A DNA stretch of 64,000 nt, taken from assembly GCA_963662465.1 (NCBI GenBank), contig OY759599.1:7136001-7200000 (forward strand). Direction: 5' to 3'. This DNA comes from Desulfatiglandales bacterium (lineage in GTDB: Bacteria; Desulfobacterota; DSM-4660; Desulfatiglandales; Desulfatiglandaceae). A program made the position numbers and the translations under genes. Below are positions 30,310 to 60,254 of the stretch, in pieces (the stretch's first letter is position 1; each line of letters begins with the position of its first letter). A model generated the notes under the pieces. It did not search any database. It was not told the DNA's origin and was given only the letters and a program-made list of their open reading frames with translations.

Positions 30310-30550
30310 ACCGGATAAGCGGTGCTTCCGCCCTCATTCTGAAATCCTTATTTGCCTGATATTAATCTCGGTTCCTACCTATCTGCCGGTAAGATTTTAA
30401 ACTTCTCTTTTTGGTGGGATTTAAATTTTTTCCCCAGTCTGTTCCAGAGCGTCAATGAGTTTCACCTTTTTTCTATAAACATCATTCATAATGATAGCTT
30501 AAATAATGGTGCGGTCTAAAAACGATTTATCCGGTTTTATAAACCGGAAC

Positions 30551-31309
30551 ATGAATTCAACCATAGGCGTTGTGGCGGCGCTTCCTGGTGAGGCAAAGGC
30601 GTTGGTTGGGCGACGGGACTGGCAAGAAGCGGAAGGACTTTTGTATTGCCGATCGTTTTTAAAAGACGGAACCGAGTTGCTGGTGGTCCAGTCCGGTATG
30701 GGAATGGATAATGCCTTTTCCGCCGCCATGTGGCTGGTCGGTAAAAACCTGAGAGCGTTGGGGGGGGTCGGTGTTTCAGGTGGGTTGGATCCGGGGTTGG
30801 GGCCAGGCGACATGGTGTTTGCCGATGCGGTTTTCATGGAGCGGGAAGATGGGGTTTATCGGGTCTGGAAAAGGGATGAGAGTGGTTCTAAAGGGGCATT
30901 GGATGGTTTAGCCGCGAAAGGCGTAACTGCCCGTTGGGGACCGATCGTTACGGTTCGCCGGGCGGTTTTGAATGCCGCGAGTAAAAAGGCGCTTTTTGAC
31001 CGAACAGGAGCGATGGCTGTTGATATGGAGACCGCGGGTGTGGCGCAGGTTGCGAACCAATCAGACCTTCCCTTTTTTGCCGTCCGGGCCGTCTGTGATT
31101 CAGCGGATGTTTCCATCCCTGAAGTCCTCTATCAATGTGTTGATCAGAAAGGCTCTCCCCGGATTTTTTATCTTTTTCGGCTGCTTCTTCGAAGGCCTTT
31201 ACTGCTATCTCATTTATTGCGCATGAAAAGAGATTTTGCCGCGGCCCTTGGTGGTGTGGCGTACGTGCGGCGTTATTTATCAAGTTATGGGGGTGAGGTC
31301 AATGAATGA
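30551..31309 (+). CDS. hpnG: Hopanoid-associated nucleoside phosphorylase (HpnG-like)
   Basis: GVVAALPGEA, GVSGGLDP, AVDMETA, VRAVCD; directly after shc. Confidence 0.8.
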   Translation: MNSTIGVVAALPGEAKALVGRRDWQEAEGLLYCRSFLKDGTELLVVQSGMGMDNAFSAAMWLVGKNLRALGGVGVSGGLDPGLGPGDMVFADAVFMEREDGVYRVWKRDESGSKGALDGLAAKGVTARWGPIVTVRRAVLNAASKKALFDRTGAMAVDMETAGVAQVANQSDLPFFAVRAVCDSADVSIPEVLYQCVDQKGSPRIFYLFRLLLRRPLLLSHLLRMKRDFAAALGGVAYVRRYLSSYGGEVNE

Positions 31310-35800: not shown

Positions 35801-37903
35801 TCAGCCTGCGCTTGCCTGATTGCAGGATGCCGCTTCCGATTCCACATCCATACTGTAACAGGTAATGCCGCAAGAGAGGCATCTTCTGCTTTCTTCTAAC
35901 GCCTGTTCCTCTGTAAGGACTTGATCCACTTCCACAAAGGAGTGGATTCTTTCATCGGGAGGCAACTCCTCCATGGGGGATCTGGGTTTCTTGACAATGC
36001 CAATCACATGGTCCATGTCCGACTCAGGGATAAGGCCTTTGCCCAGTTCCCTGGGTGAAGCCTTCACTTCCTCATTCATGACATACTGGTGGATCGACCT
36101 GGCTGCCCGTCTGCCGCCGCCGATGGCGGTTACCACCAGGGCAGGACCCGTGGCCGAATCGCCGCCCGCAAAGAGGTAGGGGATATTGGTTTGCAGCGTC
36201 TTGGGATCGGCATCTATCGTATTCCGGCGGGTGGTTTTCAACTCGGCCAGGCGTTTCTGATCCCGTTCTACAAACGATACGTCCGGGGCCTGTCCGATGG
36301 CGGTAATGATCATATCCGTCTGCAGCCGTGTTTCCGACCCTTCGATGGGAACGGGGCGCCGTCTGCCGCTGGCATCCGGTTCACCCAATTCCATTTTCAG
36401 GTATTCCAGATGGGTACAGTGCCCTTTATCATCGCTCACCACTTCCTTGGGCGCCGTCAGGAAAATGAATTCCACGCCTTCCTCATCCGCCGCTTCGACC
36501 TCAACCGGGTTGGCGGGCATCTCTTTTCGGGTTCTTCGATACGCCAGGTAGACCTTTTTGACGCCATAGCGAAGGAGGTTTCGGGTACAGTCGATGGCGG
36601 TGTTTCCTCCACCGACGACCACCGCTGTTTCTCCCATGGGAAGCTTTTCGCCGCCTGCCAGACGGGAAAGAAAATCAATGCCCGTGTAGCACCCTTCCAG
36701 GTTCTCGCCTTCTACGCGCAACAGGGAGTCTTTCCAGGCTCCGATCCCCATGAAAATGGCATCATAACCGGCTGCCACAAGAGATGTCAGGTCAAAATCC
36801 ACACCGAATTTCACCCGGGTATGACATTCAATCCCCAGATTGAGGATGCCTTCAATTTCCCAGTCCACGATCTTTTTGGGAAGGCGGTATTCGGGGATGC
36901 CGTAACGGATCATGCCGCCCAGTTTGGGCATGGCTTCGTATATGGTGACCTCGTGGCCCATTCGGCGAAGGAAAAAGGCGCAGCTCAATCCCGCGGGACC
37001 TCCGCCGACGACAGCGATCTTTTTGTTGGTGAGCGGCGCCACGGAAATGGGAAACCGTTTGCCCGAATTCATCTCATAGTCGGCTGCAAAGCGTTTCAAC
37101 TGGTTGATGGAAACCGGCTCGTCTTCTATGCCTCTGCGGCAGTTTGTTTCACAGGGATGGGGACATACCCTGCCGCAGGAGAGGAGCAGGGGGTTGCGTT
37201 CTCGGATTGTATGGACGGCGCCCTCGTAATCCCCTTTTCGAATCTGAGCAATGTAGAGTGGGATGTTGATCTGTGCCGGGCAGGTTTGTCGGCATGGCGC
37301 CAGGCAGTCTCCTTCCTCGTTAAAGTGAAGCAGCCGTTCCGAGGGGGTTTTAACCTTTAAGATGTTTTTCGGGCAGGTCCGTTCGCAGGCGCCGCAGCCC
37401 ACACATTTTTCCTCGTCCACAACGGGGAACCCCTCAGGTCCTATTTTCAGGGCGCCAAACAGACAGGCCCTTACGCAGTCGCCGTAACCGAGACACCCGA
37501 TATCGCATTGGCGTTTGCCGTCGTCCAACATCATCTGTGCCCGGCATGAGGGGATGCCCTCGTAAAGATACCTTAGCGGCGCCCGATTTCCCCCGGTACA
37601 GGGGTTCGAGCAAGTGGCTGCTTCCGCAACACCGCCTGCCATTCCCATGATCGCCGCAACGGCTTTGGTAGATTCTTCCCCCCCGACGATGCAAACATTG
37701 GCGGGCGCATCTCCCTGGACCACGGCAACCGCCGCGGCTGAACATCCCGCAAACCCGCATCCGCCGCAATTGGCGCCGGCCAGACAATCTTCCACCTGCC
37801 CGATTCTCGGGTCTTCATAAACGTAAAAAATTTTGGATGCGAGGCTCAGAACAATACCTAATACCGCTCCCAGACCACACATAACAAGCAAGGCTGGAAC
37901 CAT
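35801..37903 (-). CDS. RnfB-like membrane-anchored polyferredoxin fused to a GltD/NfnB-like FAD/NAD(P)-binding oxidoreductase
   Basis: N-terminal hydrophobic helix, LAGANCGGCGFAGC, CLGYGDCVRAC, CVGCGACERTCP; then CGRVCPHPCE, GGGPAG, GGGNTAID; AGGAG RBS. Confidence 0.9.
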   Translation of the reverse strand: MVPALLVMCGLGAVLGIVLSLASKIFYVYEDPRIGQVEDCLAGANCGGCGFAGCSAAAVAVVQGDAPANVCIVGGEESTKAVAAIMGMAGGVAEAATCSNPCTGGNRAPLRYLYEGIPSCRAQMMLDDGKRQCDIGCLGYGDCVRACLFGALKIGPEGFPVVDEEKCVGCGACERTCPKNILKVKTPSERLLHFNEEGDCLAPCRQTCPAQINIPLYIAQIRKGDYEGAVHTIRERNPLLLSCGRVCPHPCETNCRRGIEDEPVSINQLKRFAADYEMNSGKRFPISVAPLTNKKIAVVGGGPAGLSCAFFLRRMGHEVTIYEAMPKLGGMIRYGIPEYRLPKKIVDWEIEGILNLGIECHTRVKFGVDFDLTSLVAAGYDAIFMGIGAWKDSLLRVEGENLEGCYTGIDFLSRLAGGEKLPMGETAVVVGGGNTAIDCTRNLLRYGVKKVYLAYRRTRKEMPANPVEVEAADEEGVEFIFLTAPKEVVSDDKGHCTHLEYLKMELGEPDASGRRRPVPIEGSETRLQTDMIITAIGQAPDVSFVERDQKRLAELKTTRRNTIDADPKTLQTNIPYLFAGGDSATGPALVVTAIGGGRRAARSIHQYVMNEEVKASPRELGKGLIPESDMDHVIGIVKKPRSPMEELPPDERIHSFVEVDQVLTEEQALEESRRCLSCGITCYSMDVESEAASCNQASAG

Positions 37904-38118
37904 TATGAACTCCTCCAATAGGCTGGGCGGAAAAATTTGTAATTTATTCATTGCCGGCGGGGGCCGCCCACAAATACCCCTCAAGGCGATTTTGGAATTT
38001 GAAACCTTAAAGCATAAAATTGAAGAAAACGCAGGGGAAAACCTATCTATCCCACTTTCAACACATATAGGAAAACAGGGTTCATATGTCAACCACAAAG
38101 CGGTTTTGAAATTTAAAG

Positions 38119-38146
38119 GTAGAGACAAGGCATGCCTTGTCTCCGC
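38119..38146. repeat. REP-like palindrome (GTAG type), imperfect copy
   Basis: GTAGAGACAAGGCATGCCTTGTCTCCGC. Confidence 0.8.
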
Positions 38147-38215
38147 AAGAGGCATGCTTTGTATCAACAATAAGGAATTTGAGAACACGGAAAGCAGGGG
38201 GGGGGTAACACGGGC

Positions 38216-39247
38216 CTATTCATATTTTCGATCGGTTTTGAAAACGGAAGGAACATCGAAGCAGTCCTGGATGGTTTTAATGGCGCTTTCCAGGTGCGAT
38301 GATAAAACAACCCCTGTAATGGAAGCAATGGTGCAGCTCAATCCCATAAGATTAACCCCGTTTGTTTCCAGGGCCGTCAAAAGGTCCCTGACGATGCCGT
38401 AACGATCTCCGAAATGGGGGCCATTCATGGAGAATGTGCCGACGGATTTGCGCGTTTCGATTTTTGATTGGGGAACTGAACGAGCAATGGTTTCTTTGTT
38501 GGAGTTCCTTTCGGTCATGGGCAAACAAAACGTTATGGCGCCGAGTTGCCCTTGTGAGCGGCTTGCGGCCAGGAAGGTAAGATCAAGTCCTTGCCGGGAA
38601 AAGGCTTCAAAGGCAATGTTCAGTACTCCCATGTTTGAATGCGCCAGGGCGATCCGCAACAACTCTTGCCGGTCCTGGTATTCAAGTCCGTATACTTTTG
38701 GGCGTTTTTCCTGGTAGGACGCGACGACTTCCTTGTAAAGTTTTTCTTTGCCCTTCTGAGCCAGTTTCCAGTCTTCAGGCGTTCGATAAGCGCTGAAAGC
38801 AAAGGGACCAAAAAGGGAACGGCCGGCGCGGGCCAGTACCTGCTCGTCAAGTATCACCGAAATAGCCGATGGTGAATGGGCCATGACGTCCGGGTGGATG
38901 CCTTCGCGGTCAAAGGCTTCAAAAAGGGCGCCGGCGATGGCTGGCTTTTTTCGGTGGGGAAATATGGAAAGGATGGCTGTGTTTGACCGCTGAATGAGAT
39001 TTTGCTCAAGGGCTTTCTGAATGAGACCGCTTGCCGTGCGGGCGTCTCCGGTTTCCACCACCAAATCGATGATCCACCCATCCGAATTGTTCCGGACGCA
39101 GGTGACGTAGGGTAGGTTGATGTGATGTTCCGCAAGGATGCGAAATAACGCCGCGGGCGACAGCCTGTCCGGCATAAAGGGCGCTGGCGAGATGAGCGAC
39201 ACCTCCTTTAAAATTTTGAATCCTCCCAGCTTTTCCTGAGTGACCAT
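38216..39247 (-). CDS. Stand-alone multi-ACT-domain protein (aspartokinase regulatory-domain-like)
   Basis: Repeated beta-alpha-beta units (LFRILAEHHINL; AGALFEAFDREGIHP..HSPSAISVIL; GPHFGDRYGIV); no kinase domain. Confidence 0.65.
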   Translation of the reverse strand: MVTQEKLGGFKILKEVSLISPAPFMPDRLSPAALFRILAEHHINLPYVTCVRNNSDGWIIDLVVETGDARTASGLIQKALEQNLIQRSNTAILSIFPHRKKPAIAGALFEAFDREGIHPDVMAHSPSAISVILDEQVLARAGRSLFGPFAFSAYRTPEDWKLAQKGKEKLYKEVVASYQEKRPKVYGLEYQDRQELLRIALAHSNMGVLNIAFEAFSRQGLDLTFLAASRSQGQLGAITFCLPMTERNSNKETIARSVPQSKIETRKSVGTFSMNGPHFGDRYGIVRDLLTALETNGVNLMGLSCTIASITGVVLSSHLESAIKTIQDCFDVPSVFKTDRKYE

Positions 39248-39270
39248 GAAAATCCCATTTAAGGGGGGGG

Positions 39271-39298
39271 GTAGAGACAAGGCATGCCTTGTCTCTAC
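39271..39298. repeat. REP-like perfect 28-bp palindrome
   Basis: GTAGAGACAAGGCATGCCTTGTCTCTAC. Confidence 0.85.
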
Positions 39299-39307
39299 GG
39301 CATTTTT

Positions 39308-39688
39308 TTAAAATAGATTGGTGACCACTTCCCACAACCCTTCCGTATCAATGGGTTTGGCAATATAGTCATCCGCTTCGGTGGACATGCCGTCGGCATG
39401 GGTGTAGGTGGTGGTGGGTACGGCTTCCCCCACGGCGGTCAAAAGAACCACCGGGATGGTCGCCGTCTCAGCGTTCGCTTTCAGTTCGGCGCAGAGTACA
39501 TACCCATCCTTTCGGGGCATCATGACATCGAGAACAACCAGGTCGGGACGTCGTTCTTTTATGGACGCTTCTCCTTCCACGCCGTCATAGGCTCTGCCCA
39601 CCTCACATCCTTTGCTTTCCAGCATCATGGCCACGGTTTCCACCAGATCAGGATCATCATCAACCACCAGTACATATTTCTTATCCAT
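39308..39688 (-). CDS. Single-domain response regulator
   Basis: VLVVDDD, LDVMMP, LLTA, YIAKP. Confidence 0.92.
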   Translation of the reverse strand: MDKKYVLVVDDDPDLVETVAMMLESKGCEVGRAYDGVEGEASIKERRPDLVVLDVMMPRKDGYVLCAELKANAETATIPVVLLTAVGEAVPTTTYTHADGMSTEADDYIAKPIDTEGLWEVVTNLF

Positions 39689-39801
39689 AACGAAACCTCC
39701 TTCCACTGATTATTGTTAAATGCGCGCATTTACATCGATGCCGCATATTTTTGGCTGTTGCCGATTCTTTTGTTAAAGAGGCGGCATCAGCTTGTTTATT
39801 C

Positions 39802-40737
39802 TCATTCTACATCTTCAGGCCTGGGATAAAGTCCGCTTCGCTCCACGATTTCCGGGACTTTTTCTTCCCATTCAATGGCCATGATGTGAAATCCCCTGAC
39901 CCCTTCACATTCCTTTAACCGCTCGATGGTTTCAACGCAGATGTTGATTCCCTCTTCCGCCTGTTTCTCCTTGGGGACGCCGGCCATCCGTTTGACCACC
40001 TCGTCGGGTACATCCATTCCCGGAACGCGGTTTTTCATGTATTTGGCCATGCCCGCGGATTTAAAAGGCGTTACCCCAGCCAGAATATGGACTTTCTCGT
40101 GGAGGCCGCGATCACGGGCCTGTTGCATCCAGAGTTCGAACTTTTCCAGGTTGTAGATGCACTGGGTCTGAATGAACTCAACGCCGGCGGCTATTTTTTT
40201 GGCCAGGCGGGGCGTACGGATTTCAAAGGGATCCGCAAAGGGGTTGGCCGCTGCGCCCACAAACATCCGGGGGGGGCGCTTGATATCATCGCCGCCCAGG
40301 AATTTGCCTTCGTCCCGCATGTGTCTCACCGTTTGGATCAGCTGCATGGAATCGATATCAAAGACATTTTGTCCCTGGGCCGAGTCACCGAATTGCTGAT
40401 GGTCCCCTGATAAGCACAGCATATTGTGGATATCAAAGGATGCGGCGCCCAGAATATCGCTTTGAAGGGCGATTCTGTTTCGATCTCTGGTCACCATCTG
40501 CAGGATCGGTTCCAGCCCCATCAGTTTCAAGTGAATGCAGGCGGCCAGACTGCACAGACGGGTGACGCTGGTCTGGTTGTCGGTGATGTTGATGGCATCC
40601 ACGTGATGCTTGATCATCTCCGCCTTTTGGGTGATGGCCTCCGGGTCGCTGCCTCTTGGGGGCCCGCATTCCGATGTGACGGCCGGAAGTCTTTCGCTCA
40701 GAATCTTTTCCAGTTTACTGGGGGTTTTTGTCTTCAT
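39802..40737 (-). CDS. metF: Methylenetetrahydrofolate reductase, MetF subunit
   Basis: SECGPPRG, NITDNQ, RDRNRIALQSD, SGDH, FIQTQ. Confidence 0.93.
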   Translation of the reverse strand: MKTKTPSKLEKILSERLPAVTSECGPPRGSDPEAITQKAEMIKHHVDAINITDNQTSVTRLCSLAACIHLKLMGLEPILQMVTRDRNRIALQSDILGAASFDIHNMLCLSGDHQQFGDSAQGQNVFDIDSMQLIQTVRHMRDEGKFLGGDDIKRPPRMFVGAAANPFADPFEIRTPRLAKKIAAGVEFIQTQCIYNLEKFELWMQQARDRGLHEKVHILAGVTPFKSAGMAKYMKNRVPGMDVPDEVVKRMAGVPKEKQAEEGINICVETIERLKECEGVRGFHIMAIEWEEKVPEIVERSGLYPRPEDVE

Positions 40738-41402
40738 TGCATTAAGTCCTCCCTCACCACTTTTCTGGGGCCGCCGGCCCGCTCCGTGGACCAGTCCTTG
40801 ATGGGTATGAGGATTTCATAGTCGTTCAGCCTGCCCAGTTTTGTTAACCGTTCCACGATGAGCTGCCAGCCGCAAACAAGATTTTTATCGATTTCGCAAT
40901 GGCCTTTGGTGGAACCGCCGCAGGGCCCGTTGAAAAGCCGTTTGGCGCAGCGGGAAACCGGGCAGATGCCCCCGGTCTTGGCCAGCATGCAGTGACCGCA
41001 ACCCTGGCAGCGCTCGGACCAAACGCCCCTTTCTTCCGTGACGCCCATGAAACAGGTGTCGACGCCCGGAAGGATCGGGGTACTCATGTATTTTTCCGCC
41101 ATGAACTGAACCCCAACCCCGCAGGCAAGGGATACCACCGCATCGTAACGGTCGATGCTGTTTCGCAATTCTTCCAGGTATTCATGGTCGCACTGTCGTT
41201 CCAGGGTGGTCTCGTCGATTTTTACGTCCTTTCTCTCGTTCATGAAGTGCATCCGCAGGGCTGAGGCCAGAACCGCCACTTCCTTTTTACCGCCCGCTTC
41301 ACATACTGTGACGCATTCGTTGCATCCGACTATGAGTATCTTTCCATACCCCTGCGTTTCCTCAATGATTTCCTCTATGGGCTTTCTTTTGGCCACAATC
41401 AT
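40734..41402 (-). CDS. metV: MetV (Fe-S/Zn MTHFR partner subunit)
   Basis: GCNECVTVC, RQCD, ACGVG, CQGCGHC..TGGICPVSRCAKRLFNGPCGG. Confidence 0.92.
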   Translation of the reverse strand: MIVAKRKPIEEIIEETQGYGKILIVGCNECVTVCEAGGKKEVAVLASALRMHFMNERKDVKIDETTLERQCDHEYLEELRNSIDRYDAVVSLACGVGVQFMAEKYMSTPILPGVDTCFMGVTEERGVWSERCQGCGHCMLAKTGGICPVSRCAKRLFNGPCGGSTKGHCEIDKNLVCGWQLIVERLTKLGRLNDYEILIPIKDWSTERAGGPRKVVREDLMQ

Positions 41403-41440
41403 AATGACATTTCCTCCTGTGGGTTATGAAATCACTTCGC

Positions 41441-41872
41441 TCATGCCGCCATGCGTTTAATGGCTGTTTTTATGGGGTTGGGACCCATTTTCTTAATCTT
41501 TTCCGTCATTTCAGTGATGACCTTGACGAACTGAGGCGCTTCACTGGAACTCAGGTTGAACATTTGCACCCGTCCTCCGTCCATTTGGATGCTGTCAAGA
41601 ATTCGCTGTGCTTCCGTCACCCGTTTTCGAGCGCGGATGTTGCCGTTGGTAAACTGGCAGGCCCCTTCCAGGCAGCCCACCACGCAAACCCCATCCGCCC
41701 CTTTTTCAATGGAACGCAGCAGATGGATCAGATCCACTCTTCCGGTGCAGGGCAGTTTGATGATCCTGACGTTACTGGGATATTGAAGTCGCATGGAACC
41801 TGCCAGGTCCGCGGCGGTATAGCCTCAAAACTGGCAGCAAAAGGCAATGATAGTCGGTTCGAATCTGTCCAT
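41441..41872 (-). CDS. mvhD: MvhD/FlpD [2Fe-2S] subunit, probable selenoprotein (UGA at 41825-41827)
   Basis: [15 protein letters not shown][UGA]GYTAADLAG...PCTGRVD...GCLEGAC; TAATG overlap with hdrA; hairpin GACCT-GGC-AGGTT after the UGA. Confidence 0.93.
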
Positions 41873-44800
41873 TACAGTGCTCCTTCCAGTAAAGCTTCCA
41901 CTTTGCTCATGACTTGATCATCTTCATACCAGTTTAATTGAATGACTTTGGCTGGGCACTCGGAGGCGCAGACCCCGCAGCCCCGGCACAGGGCCGGATC
42001 AATTTCGCTGACCCCGTCCTGGTTGATTCTGGGCACCCCATAGGGGCAGGACCGAACGCAAACCAGACAAGCAGCGCATTTTTCTTGATCCACCGTGGCT
42101 GTAACCACGGAAAGGGTGATGTTATCCTGGGCCAGGAAGGTGACGGCCCTTGCCGCCGCCGCCATGGCCTGGCTGATGGATTCGGATATCAGTTTCGGGC
42201 TGTGGGCCGTGCCGCATACAAAAAAGGCGTCGTTTTGCATATCCACCGGACGCAGTTTCACATGGGCTTCCATGAAATAACCGTACTGGTCCTGCGTCAC
42301 CCTGAGGATGGATGACAGTTCTTCGTTTTCTTCAGCGCGCATGCCCGTACTGAGTGCGACGATGTCTGCTTTAGCCTGGATTTCCCGTTGCAGCACATGG
42401 TCTTTAAAGCGCACCATCAGACCGCTTTCGGTGTTTTTCACCTCAGGCGGATGATCCCGGTCAAAGCTGAAAAAGAGGACTCCCAAACGCCTGGCTTCAC
42501 GGTAGTATTTTTCCATAAGTCCGTAGGTTCGGATATCCCGGTAGAGAATATACACGTCCGTTTCCGGGTTTTGCCGTTTGATCTGAAGGGCGTTTTTAAT
42601 GGCGCTCTGGCAGCAGATACGGGAACAATTCGGGTTCTCCTCGTTTCTGGAACCCACGCATTGAATCATGATCACCCGTTCCAGATTTTCGGCGCCTCTC
42701 TCATACAGCCGCCGGTCCAGTTCGATCTGGGTGATGACTCGGTCGTTTTGGCCGTATAGAAACTCGGTGGGTTTGTATTCCCGAGCGCCCGTGGCCAGAA
42801 TGACCGCCCCATGGTCGATTTTCCGTTCATACATTCCCGGGCCTACCATCACTTCCGTGGTGAAATTCCCTTTGAAACCGTTGAAATCAACAATGAGAGT
42901 CTCGGTTAACACCTGAATCTTTTCGTGTCGTTCCACCATGGAAATGACGTCGGACAGGTGGGCCTGAATGTTGCCCCCTTCGATGGTGTCCGTGAGTTCT
43001 TTGGCAAGTCCTCCCAGTTGAGGGCTTTTCTCGATGAGTACCACTTCAAACCCCTGGTTCGCCACTCCCAGGGCTGCGGTCATACCGGCGATGCCGCCGC
43101 CGATCACCAGTGCCCGTTTGTTAACGGTGATGGTTTTGGCCCTGAGGGGTTCCAGCAGGGAAGCCCTGGCTACGGCCATGCGAACCAAATCCTTGGCTTT
43201 GTTGGTGGCGGCCTCGGGGTCGTCCCGGTGAACCCAGGAATCGTGATTGCGGATATTGGCCATCTCAAAGAGATATTTGTTGAGGCCGCTTTCCTGAAGG
43301 CTGTCTTGAAAGAGCGCTTCATGGGTGGTCGGCGAGCAGGCGGCCACCACCACGCGGTTGATGTTGTTTTCCTGGATGACCCGCTTGATCTTTTCCTGGG
43401 TGTCCTGGGAGCAGGTGAACAGGTTCTGGTCCGTCAGGACCACATTGGGTAGCGATGCTGCATATTCGGCTACCGCCGGGACGTCCACAACTCCCCCGAT
43501 GTTGATGCCGCAGTTGCAGACAAATACGCCGATCCTGGGCGTCAGGTCCTCCACGTCCATTTCATCGGGAATGATTTTGGTGCGAACTTCGGTTCCCCGG
43601 GTTTCGCTCAAGATCATGCTTGAGGCGCAAGCCGCGGCACTCGCTTCAACCACCGATTGGGGGATATCCTTGGGCCCTTGAAAAGCGCCGCATACATATA
43701 CCCCTTCAATGGACCCGTTGACCGGATGAAACGGTTCCGTGGCGCAGAAATTATCTTCGTTGATATCCAGTCCGATGTCTTCGGCGAGCTGTACCACCTT
43801 TGGGCTTATTTCCATACCCACGGAGAGCACCACCAGGTCAAAGGTTTCCTCAATTAATTCACCGTTTTCCGTAACGTATTTCAGGGTCAGCGAATCATTA
43901 TCAACTTGCGGGTCGATGGTGTGTATCCGACTCCTGATGAAGCGAACCCCGTGTTTGTCGCGGGCATTGTTGTAATAGACCTCAAAATCCTTTCCATGGG
44001 TGCGCATGTCCATGAAGAAGATGGCGCAGTCCAGGTCGTTTCCCGCATGTTCCTTGGCAATGACCGCTTCCTTGATGGCGTACATGCAGCACACGTTGGA
44101 ACAGTACGAGTGGTCGCATTGATTGATGTCCCGAGACCCCACGCATTGAATCCATGCGATTTTCTTGGGTTCCTTGTGGTCCGAAATTCTTACCAAATGG
44201 CCCATGGTGGGGCCGGAAGCAGAGAGAATGCGCTCAAATTCCATGGCGGTGATCACATTGGGATGATCCGTATAATGATAGGTGTCAAACCGTGATGGAT
44301 CAAAGGGTTGAAACCCCGGCGCCAGAATAATGGACCCGGTGTGGAGTTCCAGGGTTTCGGGTTTTTCCCCATGGGTGATTAGCGTTACGGCCTCTGCTTT
44401 GCAGGCTTCCACGCACTGGTAGCATTCGCAACAGTAGCCGCAGTTTAAACATCGCTTTGCTTCCTGCTGACCTTGCTGTTCCCCATAGCCCAGCTCCACC
44501 TCCCTGAAGTTTCCGGCTCGGTCCGGCACGGGGAGTTCAGGCATGGTTTCCCTCCGTGCTGCAGGCATAAGCGCGGGGATCGGACGATATTCGGGCATTT
44601 CCGGCAGCAGGGGTTCCCGACCTTCGGCCATGTCCGCACCGTTCAGAAAACGTTCGATGGAGCAGGCCGCTTCCCGTCCCGCCGCAATGGCCATAATGGC
44701 CTGGGCCGGTCCGGTCTGAAGGTCCCCTCCCGCAAAGACGCCTTCCCGTTCGGTGGCAAAGGTCAAGGGATCTGTTTCAGCGGTTCCCCGGGATGAAAAG

Positions 44801-46323
44801 CCTAAATCTCTCACATGTTCCAGGGCGGAAAGATCCGGTCTCTGGCCGATCGCGGAGATGAGCTGATCAATTTCCAGGTCATATTCGCTGCCCTGGATGG
44901 GTACGGGTCTTCTTCTCCCGGATTTATCGGGTTCTCCCAATTCCATCCGCAGACACCGCAGTCCCGCCACTTTGCCTTCCTGTACCAGGACTTCTTGAGG
45001 CGCCGCCAGATAGGCGATCTGAACGCCTTCCGCTTCCGCCGCCTCTATCTCCTCTTCCCAGGCGGGCATTTCGGCGCGTGTTCTTCGATATATGATATGG
45101 ACCGCTTCGGCGCCCAGGCGGATGGCAGCGCGAGAAACGTCGATGGCCACGTTGCCGCCGCCGATGATGGCGACCCGTTTACCAACGCTGGTTTTTCCAT
45201 CCAGGTTCAGTTCGCGCAGAAAATCCACGCCCTGCCGAGCGCCTTTGGCATCCTCTCCGGGAATGCCCAATTCAATTCCTTTGTGGGCGCCGATGGCCAG
45301 ATAGACGGCCTTATAGCCCTGGTTGAACAGGTCATCCACGGAATAATCCACGCCCAGGCGCATGTTGGTTTTGATTTTTTGACCCAGGTTGGTAATGATT
45401 TCAATCTCCCTGTCCAGGATATCCTGGGGCAGTCGGTGATCGGGAATGCCCACTCGCAGCATGCCGCCGGGTTTGGAGAGCGCCTCAAAAATGGTACACG
45501 AAATTCCTTTTCGCGCCAGATGATAGGCCGCGGAAAGTCCCGCCGGTCCGGAACCGATGATGGCCACCTTTTCTTCCCTTAAAGGCAGGCAATCGATCTT
45601 GATATTTCTGGGATCAAACTGATCGGCTGCCAGGCGTTTCAGGTTCCGAATGGCCACGGGGTCATCGGCTTCACATCTCCGGCAGGCTTCTTCGCAAGCA
45701 TGGGGACAGATGCGGCCCAACACGCCGGGAAGGGGCAGATCATCCATGATGATGTTCAGGGCCGCCTCATATTTTCCCATGCCTACCATCTGGACGTAGC
45801 CTTGAACGTTTAATCCCGCTGGACAGGCCAGGCGGCATGGGGCTTTGTCCGCTTTATGAACGGCAAAGGCGCTGGGGATGGCCTGTGCGTATTTCTTGAA
45901 AATGGCATGTTTCTGGCTTAATCCCTGATCATATTCATTGGGTAGCGCTACGGGGCACACTTCGGCGCAATCACCGCAGGCTGTGCATTTGGATGCGTCA
46001 ATAAATCGCGGTGTTTTTTGAACTGTGACCCTGAAATTTCCCGCAGCGCCTTCTACTTTTTTCACCTCGGCGGAGGTGATCAAATCGATGTTGAGATGCC
46101 GGCCGACCTCGACCAGTTTTGGTGAGATAATTCACATGGCGCAGTCATTGGTGGGGAATGTTTTGTCCAGCTCGGACATGACCCCGCCAATGGCTGAAGA
46201 CGCTTCAATGAGCTGAACATGATAGCCCGAATTGGCCAGGTCCAGAGCCGACTGCATGCCGGCGATGCCGCCGCCGACGACCATGATCGATCCTGATTTT
46301 TGTTGAGACTCGGTTTTCGACAT
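41872..46323 (-). CDS. hdrA: Large HdrA/HdrL-type flavoprotein (1483 aa) with an inserted GltD-like NAD(P)H module, probable selenoprotein (UGA at 46132-46134)
   Basis: ORFs 46132-46323 and 41872-46083 are in frame: [12 protein letters not shown][UGA][12 protein letters not shown]; two QCVGSR/CSxxCC modules; hairpin CTGGTCG-AGGT-CGGCCGG after the UGA. Confidence 0.93.
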
Positions 46324-46345
46324 GATTTAGGGTTCCTTTCCGCTC

Positions 46346-47221
46346 TTAAAGCTGTGCCTCGTCCAAGATTAGGGGGAGCTTGCTTTCCCAACCCACGGTG
46401 GAAATCAAAACGCCGGCCATTCCCATTGCTTTGACCCGTTTCAGGGTGTCGCCGGCGATGCGGATGCACTCTTTGATTTTATCCGGGGCTTTCTGTATCC
46501 CTCGGGTGATGTCGGGAGGGATGGAAATCCCCCTGACATTGCGGTCAATGTAGCGCGCCATGCCGGCCGATTTGAGCAGCAGGATGGTGGGCAGTACGGC
46601 AATTTTTGAGGTGTCCACCCGCTTGATAAACTGCTCAAAACGCCGCAGGTCAAAAACAGGATTGGTAATGACGTAATTCACGCCCATTGCGATCATTTTT
46701 TCAAGATTTTCCATTTCCACGTCCAGCAGATTCCCCGCGGCGCCGGCATTAACGGTGGAACCGATGCAGAAAGAAGGGGCGCCCTTAAGTTCAACCCCTG
46801 CCAGATCTTTTCCCTTTTGGAGGGTTTGTACCATCTGAATCAATTCCATCAGATCCAGATCATTGACGATTCTTGCCTGGGGGTGGTCGCCGAACCGGGT
46901 TTCCACGCCGCTTACCGCCATGATGTTTCCGACCCCCAAGGCTGCCGCGGATAGGATATCCGCCTGAAGCGCAAGACGATTACGGTCCCGGCAGCAGACT
47001 TGAAGCACCGACTCAATTCCCTCCCTTTCCAGACAGGCGCAACCCCCAAGGGAACTGGCTTTTAATACTGCATTGGCCATTTCCGGCGCCACAATGGCAT
47101 CCACCCTGCCCCTTACAAGGTTGGCGTCCTTGATGAAGGGATCGAAATCAGCGCCTTTGGGGGGTTCGAATTCTCCCAGAACAATAAATTTTCCAGTTTC
47201 AAATTTTTCCTTTAACGGCAT
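46346..47221 (-). CDS. Second, divergent MetF-like protein
   Basis: EFEPPKG, CRDRNRLALQADIL, FGDHP; lacks the canonical NITD and TQ motifs (has VAPE and TN). Confidence 0.8.
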   Translation of the reverse strand: MPLKEKFETGKFIVLGEFEPPKGADFDPFIKDANLVRGRVDAIVAPEMANAVLKASSLGGCACLEREGIESVLQVCCRDRNRLALQADILSAAALGVGNIMAVSGVETRFGDHPQARIVNDLDLMELIQMVQTLQKGKDLAGVELKGAPSFCIGSTVNAGAAGNLLDVEMENLEKMIAMGVNYVITNPVFDLRRFEQFIKRVDTSKIAVLPTILLLKSAGMARYIDRNVRGISIPPDITRGIQKAPDKIKECIRIAGDTLKRVKAMGMAGVLISTVGWESKLPLILDEAQL

Positions 47222-47237
47222 GGTTCGGACCTCCAAG

Positions 47238-47612
47238 TTAATGTGATAACCCGTTGACGGCGTTGGAAATGGCCATTACGAGATCTTCGATTCCAAAGGA
47301 TTTGATATGGTAATAGAAAATCTGATGTTTACGGATTTTACTTTCCAGTTGAGGGGTGTTTTTTTCCGCGCAAACGATGATGGGAAGCTCTTTCTCCATC
47401 CCCTTAATTACAGAGATGAAACCGCAGTCTTCCGCCAGCAGGGAAGCATCCAGCACCAGCGCATCAATTCTGTTTTCCTGCAGGGTTAAAAGCACATCCT
47501 TGAGATTGCCGGCTTTCAACAGTTCATAACCCCGATCCGTTGCAAAAATTTCCAGTGCTTTGGGGGTGCTTCCCGTCTGTTCCGCTATGAGGATGGTTTT
47601 GTTTGCGCCCAT
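47238..47612 (-). CDS. Atypical (pseudo-)receiver domain protein
   Basis: TILIAE, ALVLD, PIIVCA, HIKSF receiver-like pattern with a degenerate acidic pocket. Confidence 0.65.
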   Translation of the reverse strand: MGANKTILIAEQTGSTPKALEIFATDRGYELLKAGNLKDVLLTLQENRIDALVLDASLLAEDCGFISVIKGMEKELPIIVCAEKNTPQLESKIRKHQIFYYHIKSFGIEDLVMAISNAVNGLSH

Positions 47613-47705
47613 TGTGTGTTGGTTGTGCTCCTGTTGGAAGCGGCTGATTGAACCCGATATTCGTATTCCTGGAAGCGGTTGCGTTTTTCCATTTGCCATT
47701 GATAA

Positions 47706-47764
47706 AGCAAATACCATGCCTGTGTTGAATGTGTGGGTATTGTCCAATATAAATCAATGAGTTG
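47706..47764 (-). promoter_or_regulatory. sigma54 -24/-12 promoter plus IHF site for the met/hdr operon
   Basis: Minus strand AGGCATGGTATTTGCT (GG-N10-GC) at 47706-47721; AATCAATGAGTTG at 47752-47764 matches WATCAANNNNTTR. Confidence 0.75.
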
Positions 47765-47939: not shown

Positions 47940-49517
47940 TCAAGGGGCGATTTTTGCTGACACAGGCTTAAACCGTCTGTAATTCCGGCCAAAAGGGATG
48001 TTGAGCTTCTTCATACGATACTGCAGGGTTCTCGGATGAACCCCCAAAAGCCGTGCGGCCCCGCGTTTTCCCTCCACTCGACCGCCGGTCATATCCAGCA
48101 CCTTTCTGATATGCAATGTAATGGCCCGGTCCAGGTCCAGGGAGCGCTCAGCCATTCGCTCAACGGGTATGTCGATGTTTTCCGGCATGGTTGAAAACAG
48201 AGATGAAAAGGTCAGCGGTTTGCCGCGGTTTATGATGAGTTCCCGTTCCACCGCGTTTTTCAATTCTCGGATATTTCCAGGCCACTGATAACCCATAAGG
48301 CTGTCAATAACACCCGGCGCCAGGGTGGCGATGGATGACAATTTCATCTTTCGGCTCATGACATTGATAAAGTGATCCACGAACCGGGGAATATCTTCCT
48401 TGCGATCCCGCAAGGGCGGAATGGAAATGGGAAACACATTCAGCCGAAAAAAGAGATCTTTTCGAAATTTCCCGTTTGGCAACATGGACTCCAGGGACCT
48501 GTGGGTGGCGGCAATGACCCGAATGTCTATGTTGATCACTTCAGATCCCCCGATCCGTTCAATCACACTGTCCTGAAGGACCCTGAGAAGCTTTTTCTGA
48601 GCTTCCGGAGAGAGTTCTCCAATTTCATCCAAAAACAGGGTGCCGCCGTTGGCTCGCTCAAAACGACCGTACACCTGGGAGAACGCCCCGGTAAACGATC
48701 CTTTTTCATGGCCGAAAAGTTCGCTTTCCACCAGATTGTCCGGAATGGCCGCACAATCCACCTTGATGAGTGGATTGTTTTTTCGTAAAGAGAGCCGGTG
48801 TATGGTATTGGCAATGACCTCTTTGCCCACGCCCGTCTCTCCCAGAAGGAGCACCGGGGTATCGGTGGGCGCCACGTGATGGATCAACTCCAGAACCCCC
48901 TTGAGGCCGAAACCGGCGCCGATCACCTCATTGCCTGTGAGATTGATAAAATCCTCCTGCAGCAGTCGGTAATTTTCGGCCAAACGCTCGCTGAGTTCTT
49001 TCAGCTCCCTTTGCCTCAAAAAGTTGGCACAGGCCATGGCCAGGGGATTGTGGAGCAAAAGCAGCAATCGGGCGTGTTCGTCGCTGAATTTTTCGCCCCG
49101 ACTGCTGGTGGCGGCTACAACCCCCAGGTATTCACCCTCCAGAATGATATCCAGTAAAAGGCCTGACTCTTCCATCGCATTCAAATCCCGGGCCACGAGG
49201 CGCGCCATATCATCATCTTTCAGTCGATCAATGATTTGACAGGCGGGCTTTCCCTCAAGATCTTCTATGAATATGCGGAACTGCTCTCGAATTGGGGCGG
49301 GTAACCGGGTTTTAACGGCAGTGGGTTTACCTCCTCTAAAGGTGGCTATGGCCACGGTTTCAATAAATCCGAGTCCGGGATCAAATAAAAGCAACGTCAT
49401 GGCGTCGGCGGGAATATCCGATTGAATGTACCGCAGGCACCTCCAGATGGCTGTTTCAATGTTGGGACTGCTGCAGATTTTAAACCGGTCCTCATAACAG
49501 GGACTGTCTGTTTCCAA
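47940..49517 (-). CDS. sigma54-dependent activator (GAF-AAA+-HTH, FhlA/NifA-like)
   Basis: GETGVGKE, ESELFGHEKGSFTGA, LFLDEIGE, WPGNIREL, C-terminal HTH. Confidence 0.93.
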   Translation of the reverse strand: METDSPCYEDRFKICSSPNIETAIWRCLRYIQSDIPADAMTLLLFDPGLGFIETVAIATFRGGKPTAVKTRLPAPIREQFRIFIEDLEGKPACQIIDRLKDDDMARLVARDLNAMEESGLLLDIILEGEYLGVVAATSSRGEKFSDEHARLLLLLHNPLAMACANFLRQRELKELSERLAENYRLLQEDFINLTGNEVIGAGFGLKGVLELIHHVAPTDTPVLLLGETGVGKEVIANTIHRLSLRKNNPLIKVDCAAIPDNLVESELFGHEKGSFTGAFSQVYGRFERANGGTLFLDEIGELSPEAQKKLLRVLQDSVIERIGGSEVINIDIRVIAATHRSLESMLPNGKFRKDLFFRLNVFPISIPPLRDRKEDIPRFVDHFINVMSRKMKLSSIATLAPGVIDSLMGYQWPGNIRELKNAVERELIINRGKPLTFSSLFSTMPENIDIPVERMAERSLDLDRAITLHIRKVLDMTGGRVEGKRGAARLLGVHPRTLQYRMKKLNIPFGRNYRRFKPVSAKIAP

Positions 49518-49798: not shown

Positions 49799-49990
49799 AG
49801 GCCGCTTTGTTTTACGGGAAAAAAACCTCTCATATTTTAGAGTATATTCGCAAACCACTAAATATGAGAGCGAATTCCGATAAATACGAGAGAAATATCG
49901 ATTTATTTCAATTAAGTAATGGAATGATTGTTGTAACTATCTGAAAAAATACACAAAAAATTTGATCAGAATGTGGCATATTTTTTGCTT
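49799..49990 (+). repeat. sigma54 enhancer/promoter cassette, copy 2
   Basis: Same boxes (49860, 49882); TGGCATATTTTTTGC (GG 49975, GC 49987); upstream of the rhodanese. Confidence 0.85.
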
Positions 49991-50150
49991 GGAATAATGA
50001 GTATTTCAGCAGTCTTTAGAGTGATGGGGGGTGATAAAATACTGATTTTGTAGCTGAGGGAAAAGATAAAAACGCCTTGTTAACCAGGCAAAACGGTACC
50101 AACTGTGATTTTTTTTCACAAAAAAATCTAAAACGGAAAGGAGTTCATTG

Positions 50151-50927
50151 ATGTATAGAAAAATCTCAATCCTGATTTTATCCCTGTTGTTTACTATCGC
50201 ATTTTCAACATTTACGCTTGCGGCCAAGGTTCCTGCCCCTTTAAAGGGGGGGGATGGTTTTAAAGCAGTGAGTCTGAAAGAAGCAAAGCAACTTCACCAA
50301 GATGGCGCAACTATGATTGCATGTCACAGTCACACGACTGATTTCATGAAAGGTCATCCTTCCGGCACCATACACATAACCTGTTTGGTTCCAAAAGACC
50401 ACAAACGCATGGATTTGCCCTTATGTGATGTTGACTTTGACGTATTACAGCTTCCGAAAGATAAAAACACACCCATTGTTACCTATTGCGCGTCGAGTAC
50501 ATGATGGAAATCCTATCACGCCGCCAGGTTGGCGGTTGAAAATGGCTACAAAAATGTCTACTGGATGAGAGACGGCATTCAAGGTTGGAAAAAAGCGGAT
50601 TACAAAACGGTAGGGGATCAAGAACTTCTGAATGCACTCATTGCGGTAAACAAGAATAATTTTGCTGAAATTATTATTACTGAAACGGATGCACGGAAGT
50701 TAAAAAATTGCACGTTCGTTGATTTTCGGGATGAAGAAAAATATAAAAAAGGTCATGTTGCATCAGCGAATCGTGTTGATTACGCCAACATGTTCTCAAA
50801 ACCAATGATGGAGGAGTTAAATAAGAGCAACAACCTCATCATTGTTCACGATGTTCCGGCGGTGGCGGGTGTCATTGCGGCCACGTTGAAGCTTATGGAC
50901 TATCCGAATGTTTATATCCTGAAATAG
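50151..50927 (+). CDS. Secreted tandem-rhodanese protein, probable selenoprotein (UGA at 50502-50504)
   Basis: ORFs 50148-50504 and 50529-50927 are in frame: IVTYCASST[UGA]WKSYHAARLAVENGYKNVYWMRDGIQGW; hairpin CCGCCA-GGT-TGGCGG after the UGA; signal peptide. Confidence 0.9.
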
Positions 50928-51224: not shown

Positions 51225-51446
51225 TCAACCGGAAAGCCTTTCCACCAACCGAACAACCATTTTGATATCGGTTGATTTGAGTTGATACCTTCGCAAAACA
51301 TTGACCAAGTTGTCCTTCTTGGGTGGGATAAACCATTCAGCATCGTGCCAATAACCCTCGGTCGTTTCTGGAACATCAGAAAAATCGATATCTTCATCCG
51401 AGAGCCGATGGACTCTTTCCCAATCTGTCTGAGAGATATTTTTCAT
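51225..51446 (-). pseudogene. BrnA-type antitoxin, internally deleted
   Basis: MKNISQTDWERVHRLSDEDIDFSDVPE...PPKKD joins directly to NLVNVLRRY; the ribbon-helix-helix core is absent. Confidence 0.65.
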
Positions 51447-51699
51447 AGGTTTTCCTCTCCCGCCTTGTCGCCTTTCGAATCGATATGATGCGGATTGTTT
51501 CTTCATCATGTTCGGTAAACACAACTAAAACAACGCATCGATGTGTCATGCCCAGTGCAATCCAGCGCTCTTCATTATAATACCGTTTGTCGATTTTGGA
51601 TAGTAGGGGATTTCCGAAAATCTCATGGGCCTCTCTGAAATCAATCCCATGTTTTCGCAAATTGATTTGGCGTTTTTTCTCATCCCATTCTAATTTCAC
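51394..51699 (-). CDS. brnT: BrnT-family toxin
   Basis: LEWDEKKRQINLRKHGIDF, EERWIALG, IRIISIRKATRRE. Confidence 0.92.
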   Translation of the reverse strand: MKLEWDEKKRQINLRKHGIDFREAHEIFGNPLLSKIDKRYYNEERWIALGMTHRCVVLVVFTEHDEETIRIISIRKATRRERKTYEKYLSDRLGKSPSALG

Positions 51700-60243: not shown

Positions 60244-60254
60244 TCAGCGCAATT

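Follow-up and report, generated by a model that had tools for sequence, protein, structure and literature searches.

How does a methylene-tetrahydrofolate (methylene-THF) reductase obtain its electrons, and in which direction does it work, when hdrB and hdrC are absent from its operon? This question is raised by a locus in a window of 64,000 nucleotides (nt) from Desulfatiglandales bacterium (assembly GCA_963662465.1, contig OY759599.1, positions 7,136,001 to 7,200,000; by window we mean this whole stretch, to which all coordinates without another label refer). There, one minus-strand run of genes encodes: (i) an atypical receiver, Rec1; (ii) MetF2, a degenerate homolog of the reductase; (iii) HdrL, a tandem HdrA with an inserted GltD/NfnB-like cassette; (iv) MvhD, MetV and MetF; (v) a second receiver, Rec2; and (vi) a protein with four ACT domains, beyond which lies the gene of an RnfB::GltD fusion. 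For all nine genes, the identity agrees with open reading frame (ORF) calls and domain searches. Our answer, favoured tentatively, is that the operon may encode a regulated, HdrBC-independent, NADPH-linked methylene-THF reductase (MTHFR).

Judged by its sequence, the core of the operon is a Moorella-type (type IV) MTHFR. It comprises hdrL (41872..46323, minus strand, as are all genes of the run; ORF read with TGA as U, and domain search), mvhD (41441..41872; FlpD match at 1e-46; its start overlaps the hdrL stop), metV (40734..41402; Pfam PF12225 at 2e-35; no solved relative found by sequence search) and metF (39802..40737; full catalytic signature). Published sources are cited by PMC number and are used as far as their available text goes. 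In Moorella and Sporomusa ovata the order hdrA-mvhD-metV-metF is the same (PMC9430772, PMC8760232, PMC8515935). Moorella HdrA, which oxidises NADH, has 1487 amino acids (aa), an additional TrxR domain that a GltD domain splits in two, and the residues E696/K750 at its first flavin (PMC9430772); HdrL, with 1483 aa, likewise carries a GltD insertion in its first module, and has E697/K751 at the corresponding sites. The window differs from both organisms in that (i) hdrCB is not in the operon; (ii) HdrA and MvhD contain selenocysteine (Sec); (iii) the locus lies outside an acs cluster and under sigma-54 control; (iv) MetF2, two receivers and a four-ACT protein are added; and (v) the cassette is predicted to be NADP-type. 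Among the features that define type IV, an intact metV-metF pair with hdrA and mvhD directly upstream is found, and hdrCB in the same transcription unit is not; yet the core would work like a type IV enzyme.

Further relatives of the core have been published. HdrL of Desulfobacterium autotrophicum HRM2, described together with a Sec-containing MvhD, is a fusion of HdrA and glutamate synthase with an NADH site and, in some copies, Sec, followed by mvhD as here; the available text of that source mentions no link to metVF and proposes DsrABC and formate dehydrogenases as partners (PMC2702500). For type I Acetothermia, hdrA-mvhD-metVF has been reported without adjoining hdrBC (PMC9586279): this system has the same co-localised core, with hdrBC elsewhere in the genome, whereas MvhAG is its proposed partner and no degenerate MetF, receiver or ACT protein is mentioned in the text available. 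More generally, hdrABC is often not co-localised with metFV-mvhD (PMC6085437). In the type III MetVF-RnfC2 enzyme of Acetobacterium woodii (PMC8760232), under the explanation favoured here, a pyridine-nucleotide module would likewise be wired to MetVF without bifurcation, the module being RnfC2 there and a GltD cassette in HdrA here. Five MTHFR types are distinguished in PMC8515935, none of them, in its available text, with MetF2, receiver or ACT extras. The claim of a new redox architecture, made in the original prediction, finds no support, since HdrL has the layout of Moorella HdrA and an hdrBC-less core is known in Acetothermia; for the redox core as for the RnfB fusion, the prediction put the novelty too high. 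Not found in print were the putative MetF2 pseudoenzyme, the swapped cassette and the sensor partners: a literature search, with most subscription journals outside it, turned up no description of this operon, of a degenerate MetF or of a regulated MetVF.

Two in-frame TGA codons had been read as Sec in the original prediction. The hdrL gene is a single frame with one TGA, at codon 64 (46132-46134), and mvhD has its TGA at codon 16 (41825-41827). In related loci, the aligned HdrA site is TGA in 44 cases and TGC/TGT in 18; for MvhD the figures are 63 and 16. Orthologs that carry Cys codons by nature are found, for example, at loci L154, L158 and L159. Because the aligned sites alternate between TGA and Cys codons, and the genome encodes tRNA-Sec and SelA, both proteins are, as far as sequence can tell, selenoproteins, and this part of the prediction stands. 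A short stem 13-16 nt after the TGA appears in most of 60 folds, which lie within conserved coding sequence and have no shuffle control.

As to the distribution of the operon, a search anchored on the ACT gene yielded 112 loci, and the best 80 of them were used; each gene is counted among the loci long enough to show it, and, the loci being kin, the counts are not independent. Present were rec2 in 67/67, metF in 62/62, metV in 58/58, mvhD in 56/56, hdrA in 47/47 and metF2 in 39 of 41, the two misses having a duplicated hdrA-mvhD that fills the flank. Neither hdrB nor hdrC lies in the window's operon, and hdrBC was found in none of 41 related loci. The predicted absence of HdrBC is, in consequence, right for the operon, whose HdrA(L)-MvhD-MetVF set is conserved, but wrong for the genome, which has four hdrC-hdrB pairs; nor does the synteny extend to rnfB::gltD, which follows the ACT gene in only 6/57 loci. 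A second search covered 401 genomes of the phylum, and 40 top-scoring loci were hand-picked from it across families, not at random: 22 have a degenerate metF2 directly before hdrA, 11 have hdrCB between the two, three have metF2-rec2 without hdr genes, and four have intact MetFs. Since metF2 occurs both with and without hdrCB, MetF2 appears to accompany the Hdr-type enzyme independently of HdrBC.

The host genome, one 8.16-Mb contig, has dsrA and, away from the window's operon, an acetyl-CoA synthase cluster; the closest relatives of the locus are titled Desulfatiglandales or Desulfobacteraceae. It holds four mvhD-metV-metF loci: (i) the window operon; (ii) nuoE-nuoF-nuoG/gltD-hdrC-hdrB-hdrA-mvhD-metV-metF; (iii) a short hdrA-mvhD-metV-metF just past the right end of the window; and (iv) glnA-mvhD-metV-metF-glutamate synthase. 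In L001:6191-19686 and L002 (L, G and P are our labels for loci, genomes and public proteins), a nuoE...metV-metF operon directly precedes an aldehyde-oxidoreductase-family gene and a further cluster, presumably of class II benzoyl-CoA reductase (Bam). A second hdrA-mvhD-metV-metF set (L003:9196-14049, with window 58885-63670), whose HdrA has 912 aa, is followed by PAS kinase, receiver-kinase and NtrC-type genes, and similar kinases stand beside many metF2 loci. In L005:11459-17890 (G000:C1 ~7,525,000-7,532,000), L215 and L219, glnA, an MvhD-like gene, metV, metF and glutamate-synthase subunits form one run, seen in two other genomes too; this glnA-linked MetVF is possibly tied to nitrogen assimilation as electron source.

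A residue of HdrA bears on whether the HdrBC arm is missing or merely encoded at a distance. In the second flavin module, the position equivalent to E356, of the E356/K409 pair of bifurcating HdrA, is Glu in 8/8 loci with hdrCB in the operon and in 1/52 readable loci without it (L171, with Asp and with hdrCB ~5 kb downstream, was set aside, and 13 loci of unknown state were left uncounted). Because this Glu tracks the presence of hdrCB, the pattern suggests that the arm has really been lost in the window type.

The cassette (44434..45882, minus strand; delimited by alignment with relatives and solved structures) lies inside HdrL. Among 66 full-length HdrAs, the insert carries YRR after the Rossmann strand in 29 and CLE in 16, and is absent in 21. 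On a 64-row tree of the C-terminal part of HdrA its state changes at least 13 times, the minimum possible being 2 (our trees are quick searches, with support from the Shimodaira-Hasegawa-like approximate likelihood ratio test, SH-aLRT, only). In L012, L014 and L015, HdrL is 84-93% identical to the window protein on both sides of the insert and 42-43% within it; L012 and L014 have the CLE form, and L017, from the cultured relative NaphS2, whose gene layout is that of the window, has YRR. The NAD(P)H cassette appears, then, to have been repeatedly swapped or lost. The window has the YRR form and is probably NADP-type, because the five best solved relatives with alignments shown, two NfnB-type subunits among them, carry YRR; by Rossmann-fold rules, the CLE form would use NAD. 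The cassette-less HdrA (~1010 aa) resembles the published Sporomusa HdrA. An NfnB-type Arg near the cassette flavin is conserved; such an Arg is present in non-bifurcating GltD too, and it was not used as evidence.

The operon has two MetF homologs of very different condition. MetF shows the complete signature (T21, E23, T52, D112, K181, Q192, H284), while MetF2 (46346..47221) is an MTHFR barrel with a degenerate active site: it keeps Glu17, at the site of E. coli Glu28, and has Leu15, Pro46, Val106, Asn187 and Leu272 in place of Ser/Thr, Thr, Asp, Gln and His. Residues were mapped by alignment and by profile match to solved structures; among solved structures, MetF2 had no match when searched as a single sequence but did when searched as a profile. 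In active MTHFR, Asp120 and Gln183 anchor the pterin, and Ser, His, Glu and Thr form a quartet (PMC9900621). The MetF2 model is a (beta/alpha)8 MTHFR barrel (predicted local distance difference test, pLDDT, 82; template-modelling score, TM, ~0.7-0.78), with Thermus, human and E. coli MTHFR as best matches. On a 120-row MetF tree, the degenerate proteins form a phylum-wide clade of 53 rows (SH-aLRT 97): Asp and Gln are both kept in 0/53 of them vs 67/67 other MetFs, Thr has become Pro in 51/53 vs 0/67, and His is kept in 7/53 vs 63/67.

In all six metF2 pairs compared, synonymous codon changes exceed replacement changes, and MetF2 homologs above 70% identity are plentiful; the gene is, on these sequence grounds, under selection. 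An ortholog (L087) corresponds by coordinates to gene a640013, with 330 fragments per kilobase per million (FPKM) and 8 peptides in the supplement of PMC6849830, where its label is that of a Wood-Ljungdahl MTHFR; the rows found in the supplement table did not include the metF of the same operon. Since the clade has lost its folate-anchoring residues, yet an ortholog is detected in a proteome, MetF2 is likely a pseudoenzyme and is predicted to be non-catalytic; databases annotate it as an active MTHFR. The suspicion that MetF2 might be structural or regulatory thereby gains a residue-level basis in the loss of the pterin-anchoring Asp/Gln, of Thr and of His. Among 150 representative matches, 16 sequences were inspected by eye and 8 were Pfam-scanned; one match outside Desulfobacterota carries the label Spirochaetales.

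Other unusual MetFs were encountered along with these. Degenerate MetFs also form a sister group, with Gln replaced by Thr and Thr mostly by Pro. Its members, L027:11567, L047:14751, L082:11962, L163:13667 and L231:1495, precede other metVF modules, among them the NuoEFG 'X type' (PMC8515935). The L231 protein, a second degenerate MetF in the genome with the detected ortholog, lies upstream of nuoG-like genes and matches a1120002 by offset and gene order, with 723 FPKM and 8 peptides (PMC6849830). In the public proteins P0352, P0379 and P0396, the fusion partner of MetF is FolD or the delta subunit of acetyl-CoA synthase.

The partners of MetF2 within the operon are of the sensor type. Rec1 (47238..47612; Pfam Response_reg at 3.5e-7, and alignment) keeps Asp55, and its acidic pair and Thr/Ser are non-canonical. 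Rec2 (39308..39688) is, by domain search, a single-domain, canonical receiver with a conserved, family-specific insert. Receivers like Rec2 are found fused to MetF in three architectures: P0419 (43% over 113 aa, no gaps), P0338 (28%) and L167 (26%), the last with the receiver at the N-terminus of a MetF-MetV fusion. On sequence, these fusions point to a direct link between Rec2 and MetF. The stand-alone four-ACT protein (38216..39247; domain search and fold match) was modelled with pLDDT 87 and matches over its full length the four-ACT region of Synechocystis aspartate kinase (3L76, TM 0.71-0.72); four ACT domains are common to both, and the kinase domain is absent from the window protein. It stands alone as does CASTOR1, with an overall TM of only ~0.3 to it. 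From its modelled fold, it is likely an amino-acid sensor. MetF2 likely acts as a regulator in concert with two proteins of the sensor type. The idea that the ACT protein supplies what a split aspartate kinase lacks was rejected, given that a complete kinase is encoded elsewhere in the genome.

Regulation may also act at transcription. A sigma-54 (-24/-12) promoter-like site (47706..47721, minus strand, one mismatch) precedes rec1, and an exact WATCAANNNNTTR match to the consensus of integration host factor (IHF) lies at 47752..47764 (plus strand), ~30 nt upstream of the -24 element. Taken alone, both motifs are at chance level in the window (10 found vs 9.7 expected for sigma-54; 5 vs 3.1 for IHF). 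Across loci, the sigma-54 motif was found upstream in 21/23 with the first receiver detected, in 2/30 without it and in 0/53 in-gene controls, and exact IHF matches in 10/53 upstream regions vs 0/53 controls. A gene for a sigma-54-dependent activator (47940..49517, minus strand; AAA and Fis-type helix-turn-helix domains; Pfam Sigma54_activat at 1e-66) stands directly upstream, as it does in several related loci, e.g. L011, L015, L033, L036, L039 and L073. Its top NCBIfam matches are NifA/FhlA-like and lie under the family cut-offs; it likely drives the operon. From rec1 to the ACT gene, intergenic gaps are at most 113 nt, and 312 nt separate the ACT gene from rnfB::gltD. Contigs from two metatranscriptome assemblies of one study (<10% of words shared), ~82-86% alike and from relatives, cover metF2 and cross the metF/metV and metV/mvhD/hdrL joins; such contigs cannot show a single transcript and were not used as evidence.

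Under the explanation that we favour, NADPH would reduce the FAD and Fe-S clusters of the GltD cassette. Electrons would then pass through the ferredoxin-like domain into which the cassette is inserted to the first HdrA flavin (E697/K751), and from there through the [2Fe-2S] cluster of MvhD and through MetV to the flavin of MetF, where methylene-THF would be reduced. The position of the cassette would act as an exchangeable port of low potential, NADP-type in some forms and probably NAD-type in others; where it is empty, it would probably be served by ferredoxin. With methylene-THF at -200 mV and NADH at -320 mV (PMC9430772), and ferredoxin near -420 mV (PMC5861303), a two-port enzyme of this kind would run downhill when it forms methyl-THF, whichever of the three states its port is in, and uphill in reverse; for the ferredoxin form, the reverse direction would not be feasible without a strong oxidant. 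With no additional partner, reduction is the sole direction in which all three forms would run downhill. The most likely task of the enzyme is hence to supply methyl-THF, and acetyl-CoA oxidation would fall to the other metVF loci of the genome. MetF2 would be a non-catalytic partner without folate-anchoring residues that, with the phosphorylatable receiver and the four-ACT protein, adjusts reductase activity to signals and to the amino-acid level. It is the combination of energetics, amino-acid-sensor fold and inducible promoter that leads us to read the operon as encoding a regulated reductase.

Several points weigh against this reading. The host has dsrA and an acetyl-CoA synthase cluster, so that its main need may be methyl-THF oxidation. 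The four hdrC-hdrB pairs, one inside another metVF operon, and 43 CCG matches in the genome could act in trans. The pair E697/K751, which bifurcating HdrA also has, is invariant, and an enzyme that acts as a plain wire has no evident use for it. The link between the second-module Glu and hdrBC rests on about two independent losses, and one HdrA of the host's own genome with hdrCB downstream carries Asp there. The second flavin pair of Moorella has been published as E1204/K1246, with a spacing of 42 (PMC9430772); that numbering would map to E1201/K1243, which the window keeps, while the structural offset gives D1203 instead. As to the cofactor, YRR and CLE cassettes both keep GXGXXA, a motif read as NADP-preferring (PMC12054007), and Moorella HdrA uses NADH, not NADPH. 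For MetF2, the catalytic Glu is kept in 50/53 rows of the clade, so that it may have another activity.

The main competing explanation is possible, though on the doubtful side: a bifurcating enzyme of the oxidative Wood-Ljungdahl pathway whose high-potential arm is supplied in trans. Electrons from methyl-THF would enter by MvhD and part ways at the first HdrA flavin: one would go uphill, by way of the cassette, to NADP+, and one downhill to an HdrBC or HdrD, encoded elsewhere, that serves DsrC or quinone. Such an enzyme would suit a sulfate reducer with acetyl-CoA synthase, would make use of the E/K pair (present in 74/74 readable rows) and of the hdrC-hdrB pairs and many CCG proteins of the genome, and mirrors the confurcation model for Sporomusa (PMC9430772). 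It would also agree with the hdrCB found between metF2 and hdrA in 11/40 phylum-wide loci and with the frequent separation of HdrABC from metFV-mvhD noted above. Against it, the second-module Glu is lost in 51/52 hdrBC-less loci, and nuoE-nuoF-nuoG/gltD-hdrCBA-mvhD-metVF is already encoded at another locus. Moreover, forms with neither cassette nor hdrBC exist, and trans-arm coupling to ferredoxin would there require an acceptor of higher potential than those known from sulfate reducers.

A second alternative concerns MetF2, which, instead of being a regulator or scaffold, might be an enzyme that has switched substrate, or might bind a flavin and carry electrons. Besides the retained Glu, many barrel positions are invariant in the clade, and closest to the clade on the tree stand intact metV-metF pairs that precede hdrCBA (L176, L192). 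We consider this unlikely. At the Asp, Gln and His sites the clade shows 6, 5 and 9 different residues, a variation that fits loss rather than a new active site. A Lys that we take to be flavin-binding varies in the clade, loop 48-64 of the MetF2 model is of low confidence, and a metV of its own lies upstream of only 1/36 degenerate copies in the 40 phylum loci (L173).

The scheme of the original prediction, in which HdrL-MvhD-MetVF, without an Hdr arm, would couple all three of methylene/methyl-THF, NAD(P)H and ferredoxin, fares worse and appears quite improbable. In its favour are the bifurcation signature at the first flavin, the NfnB-like cassette and the energetics, which are near equilibrium for the passage of electrons from 2 NADH to methylene-THF plus ferredoxin (PMC5861303). 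Nevertheless, a GltD domain inserted in this way is expected to obstruct the ferredoxin site (PMC12054007), which speaks against ferredoxin as a partner of the window copy; ferredoxin could not be confirmed for the Moorella enzyme in the text available; and no second ferredoxin port was identified in HdrL-MvhD-MetVF.

The rnfB::gltD gene (35801..37903, minus strand) does encode, as predicted, a membrane-anchored RnfB fused to a GltD-like flavoprotein: 700 aa, with an N-terminal hydrophobic helix (mean hydropathy 2.5), RnfB Fe-S domains and an NAD(P)-binding flavin domain. Its membership of the operon is another matter, for it has, besides the 312-nt gap, a sigma-70-like site of its own, TTGACA-N17-TATATG (38064..38092, minus strand); of the predicted nine-gene run behind the sigma-54 and IHF sites, the identities, the order and both sites are confirmed, and this membership is not. 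The same motif precedes rnfB in the window and in 6/7 closest loci, and TTGACA-N16-TATAAT precedes 7 orphan rnfB homologs (12/27 rows matched, window included; no shuffle control for the former motif); a consensus promoter scan of the window did not list the site. The protein is the genome's only RnfB, and the rnf operon ~440 kb away (G000:C1:7,611,054-7,615,602; cytochrome c-rnfC-rnfD-rnfG-rnfE-rnfA) ends at rnfA without an rnfB. The usual NADH/FMN motif appears to be missing from the host RnfC, a feature in common with the Tol2-type Rnf. In the order, the RnfB N-terminal part is matched in 91/121 genomes, mostly in frames of ~700 aa; in the 29 other best RnfB loci, the gene comes after the ACT gene twice and after rnfA three times, and in the remaining 24 neither of these lies within 1.5 kb.

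Large RnfBs have been described in Desulfobacula toluolica and Desulfococcus multivorans (PMC5109826), and rnfB::gltD is the published Tol2-type: an RnfB of ~700 aa with a pyridine-nucleotide domain, and a cytochrome c gene in the rnf cluster, both as here. The Tol2-type gene lies in the rnf operon after rnfA, whereas the rnf operon here is without it, and the window protein falls in a YRR subgroup made up mostly of orphans; the flavin domain of this subgroup shares 31% identity with the operon-encoded type of L121/L122. RnfB::GltD would then be a separately transcribed Rnf subunit, probably serving the rnfCDGEA operon and no part of the MTHFR system, and most likely a neighbour by relocation. 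That it is instead a co-transcribed membrane anchor of the MTHFR complex, as its strand, its adjacency here and in the closest relatives (L011-L017; same-genus G040, G067) and the shared YRR family of its cassette and that of HdrL might suggest, is very improbable given the rarity of this adjacency, the promoter-like site that travels with the gene, the rnfB-less rnf operon of a genome with no other RnfB, and the known Tol2-type subunit; the proposed membrane link is unsupported on the same grounds.

If the regulated-reductase reading is correct, the implications go beyond this locus. It is conceivable, although rather doubtful, that a pseudo-MTHFR is a dedicated subunit of the MTHFRs of Desulfobacterota and, together with a phosphorylatable receiver and a four-ACT amino-acid sensor resembling CASTOR, switches or gates the enzyme post-translationally, on an HdrBC-free HdrA with a pyridine-nucleotide cassette exchanged between lineages. 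In bacteria, such control would correspond to that by the regulatory domain in eukaryotic MTHFR, and it would be a case of protein-level control of a bacterial MTHFR, of which the literature search found no description. The forms with or without HdrBC, and with an NADP-type, a CLE-type or no cassette, offer a comparison series for the second electron partner of type IV MTHFR and the role of HdrBC, questions standing since 2014; the soluble four-subunit form should purify more easily than the Moorella complex. Complete-oxidising sulfate reducers are abundant in marine sediment, and the same search turned up no characterised electron partner for their methylene/methyl-THF step. The pseudoenzyme reading, if true, would correct many MTHFR annotations, including a Wood-Ljungdahl count in PMC6849830.

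The window contains some further features. A 28-nt palindrome at 39271-39298, with partial relatives at 38138-38154 and 35865-35882, all intergenic, resembles repetitive extragenic palindromic (REP) elements and has 34 matches in the genome at up to 3 substitutions. At 50148-50927 (plus strand), two ORFs joined by one in-frame TGA give a frame of 259 aa, a possible selenoprotein; an exact sigma-54-like motif precedes it (49974-49989), its first half is without a Pfam match, and we assume it to be rhodanese-like. Two small ORFs at 51225-51699 (minus strand) presumably form a BrnT/BrnA-like toxin-antitoxin pair, and at 28228-31309 (plus strand) lies what we take to be a squalene-hopene-cyclase-like gene, followed by a nucleoside-phosphorylase-like one.

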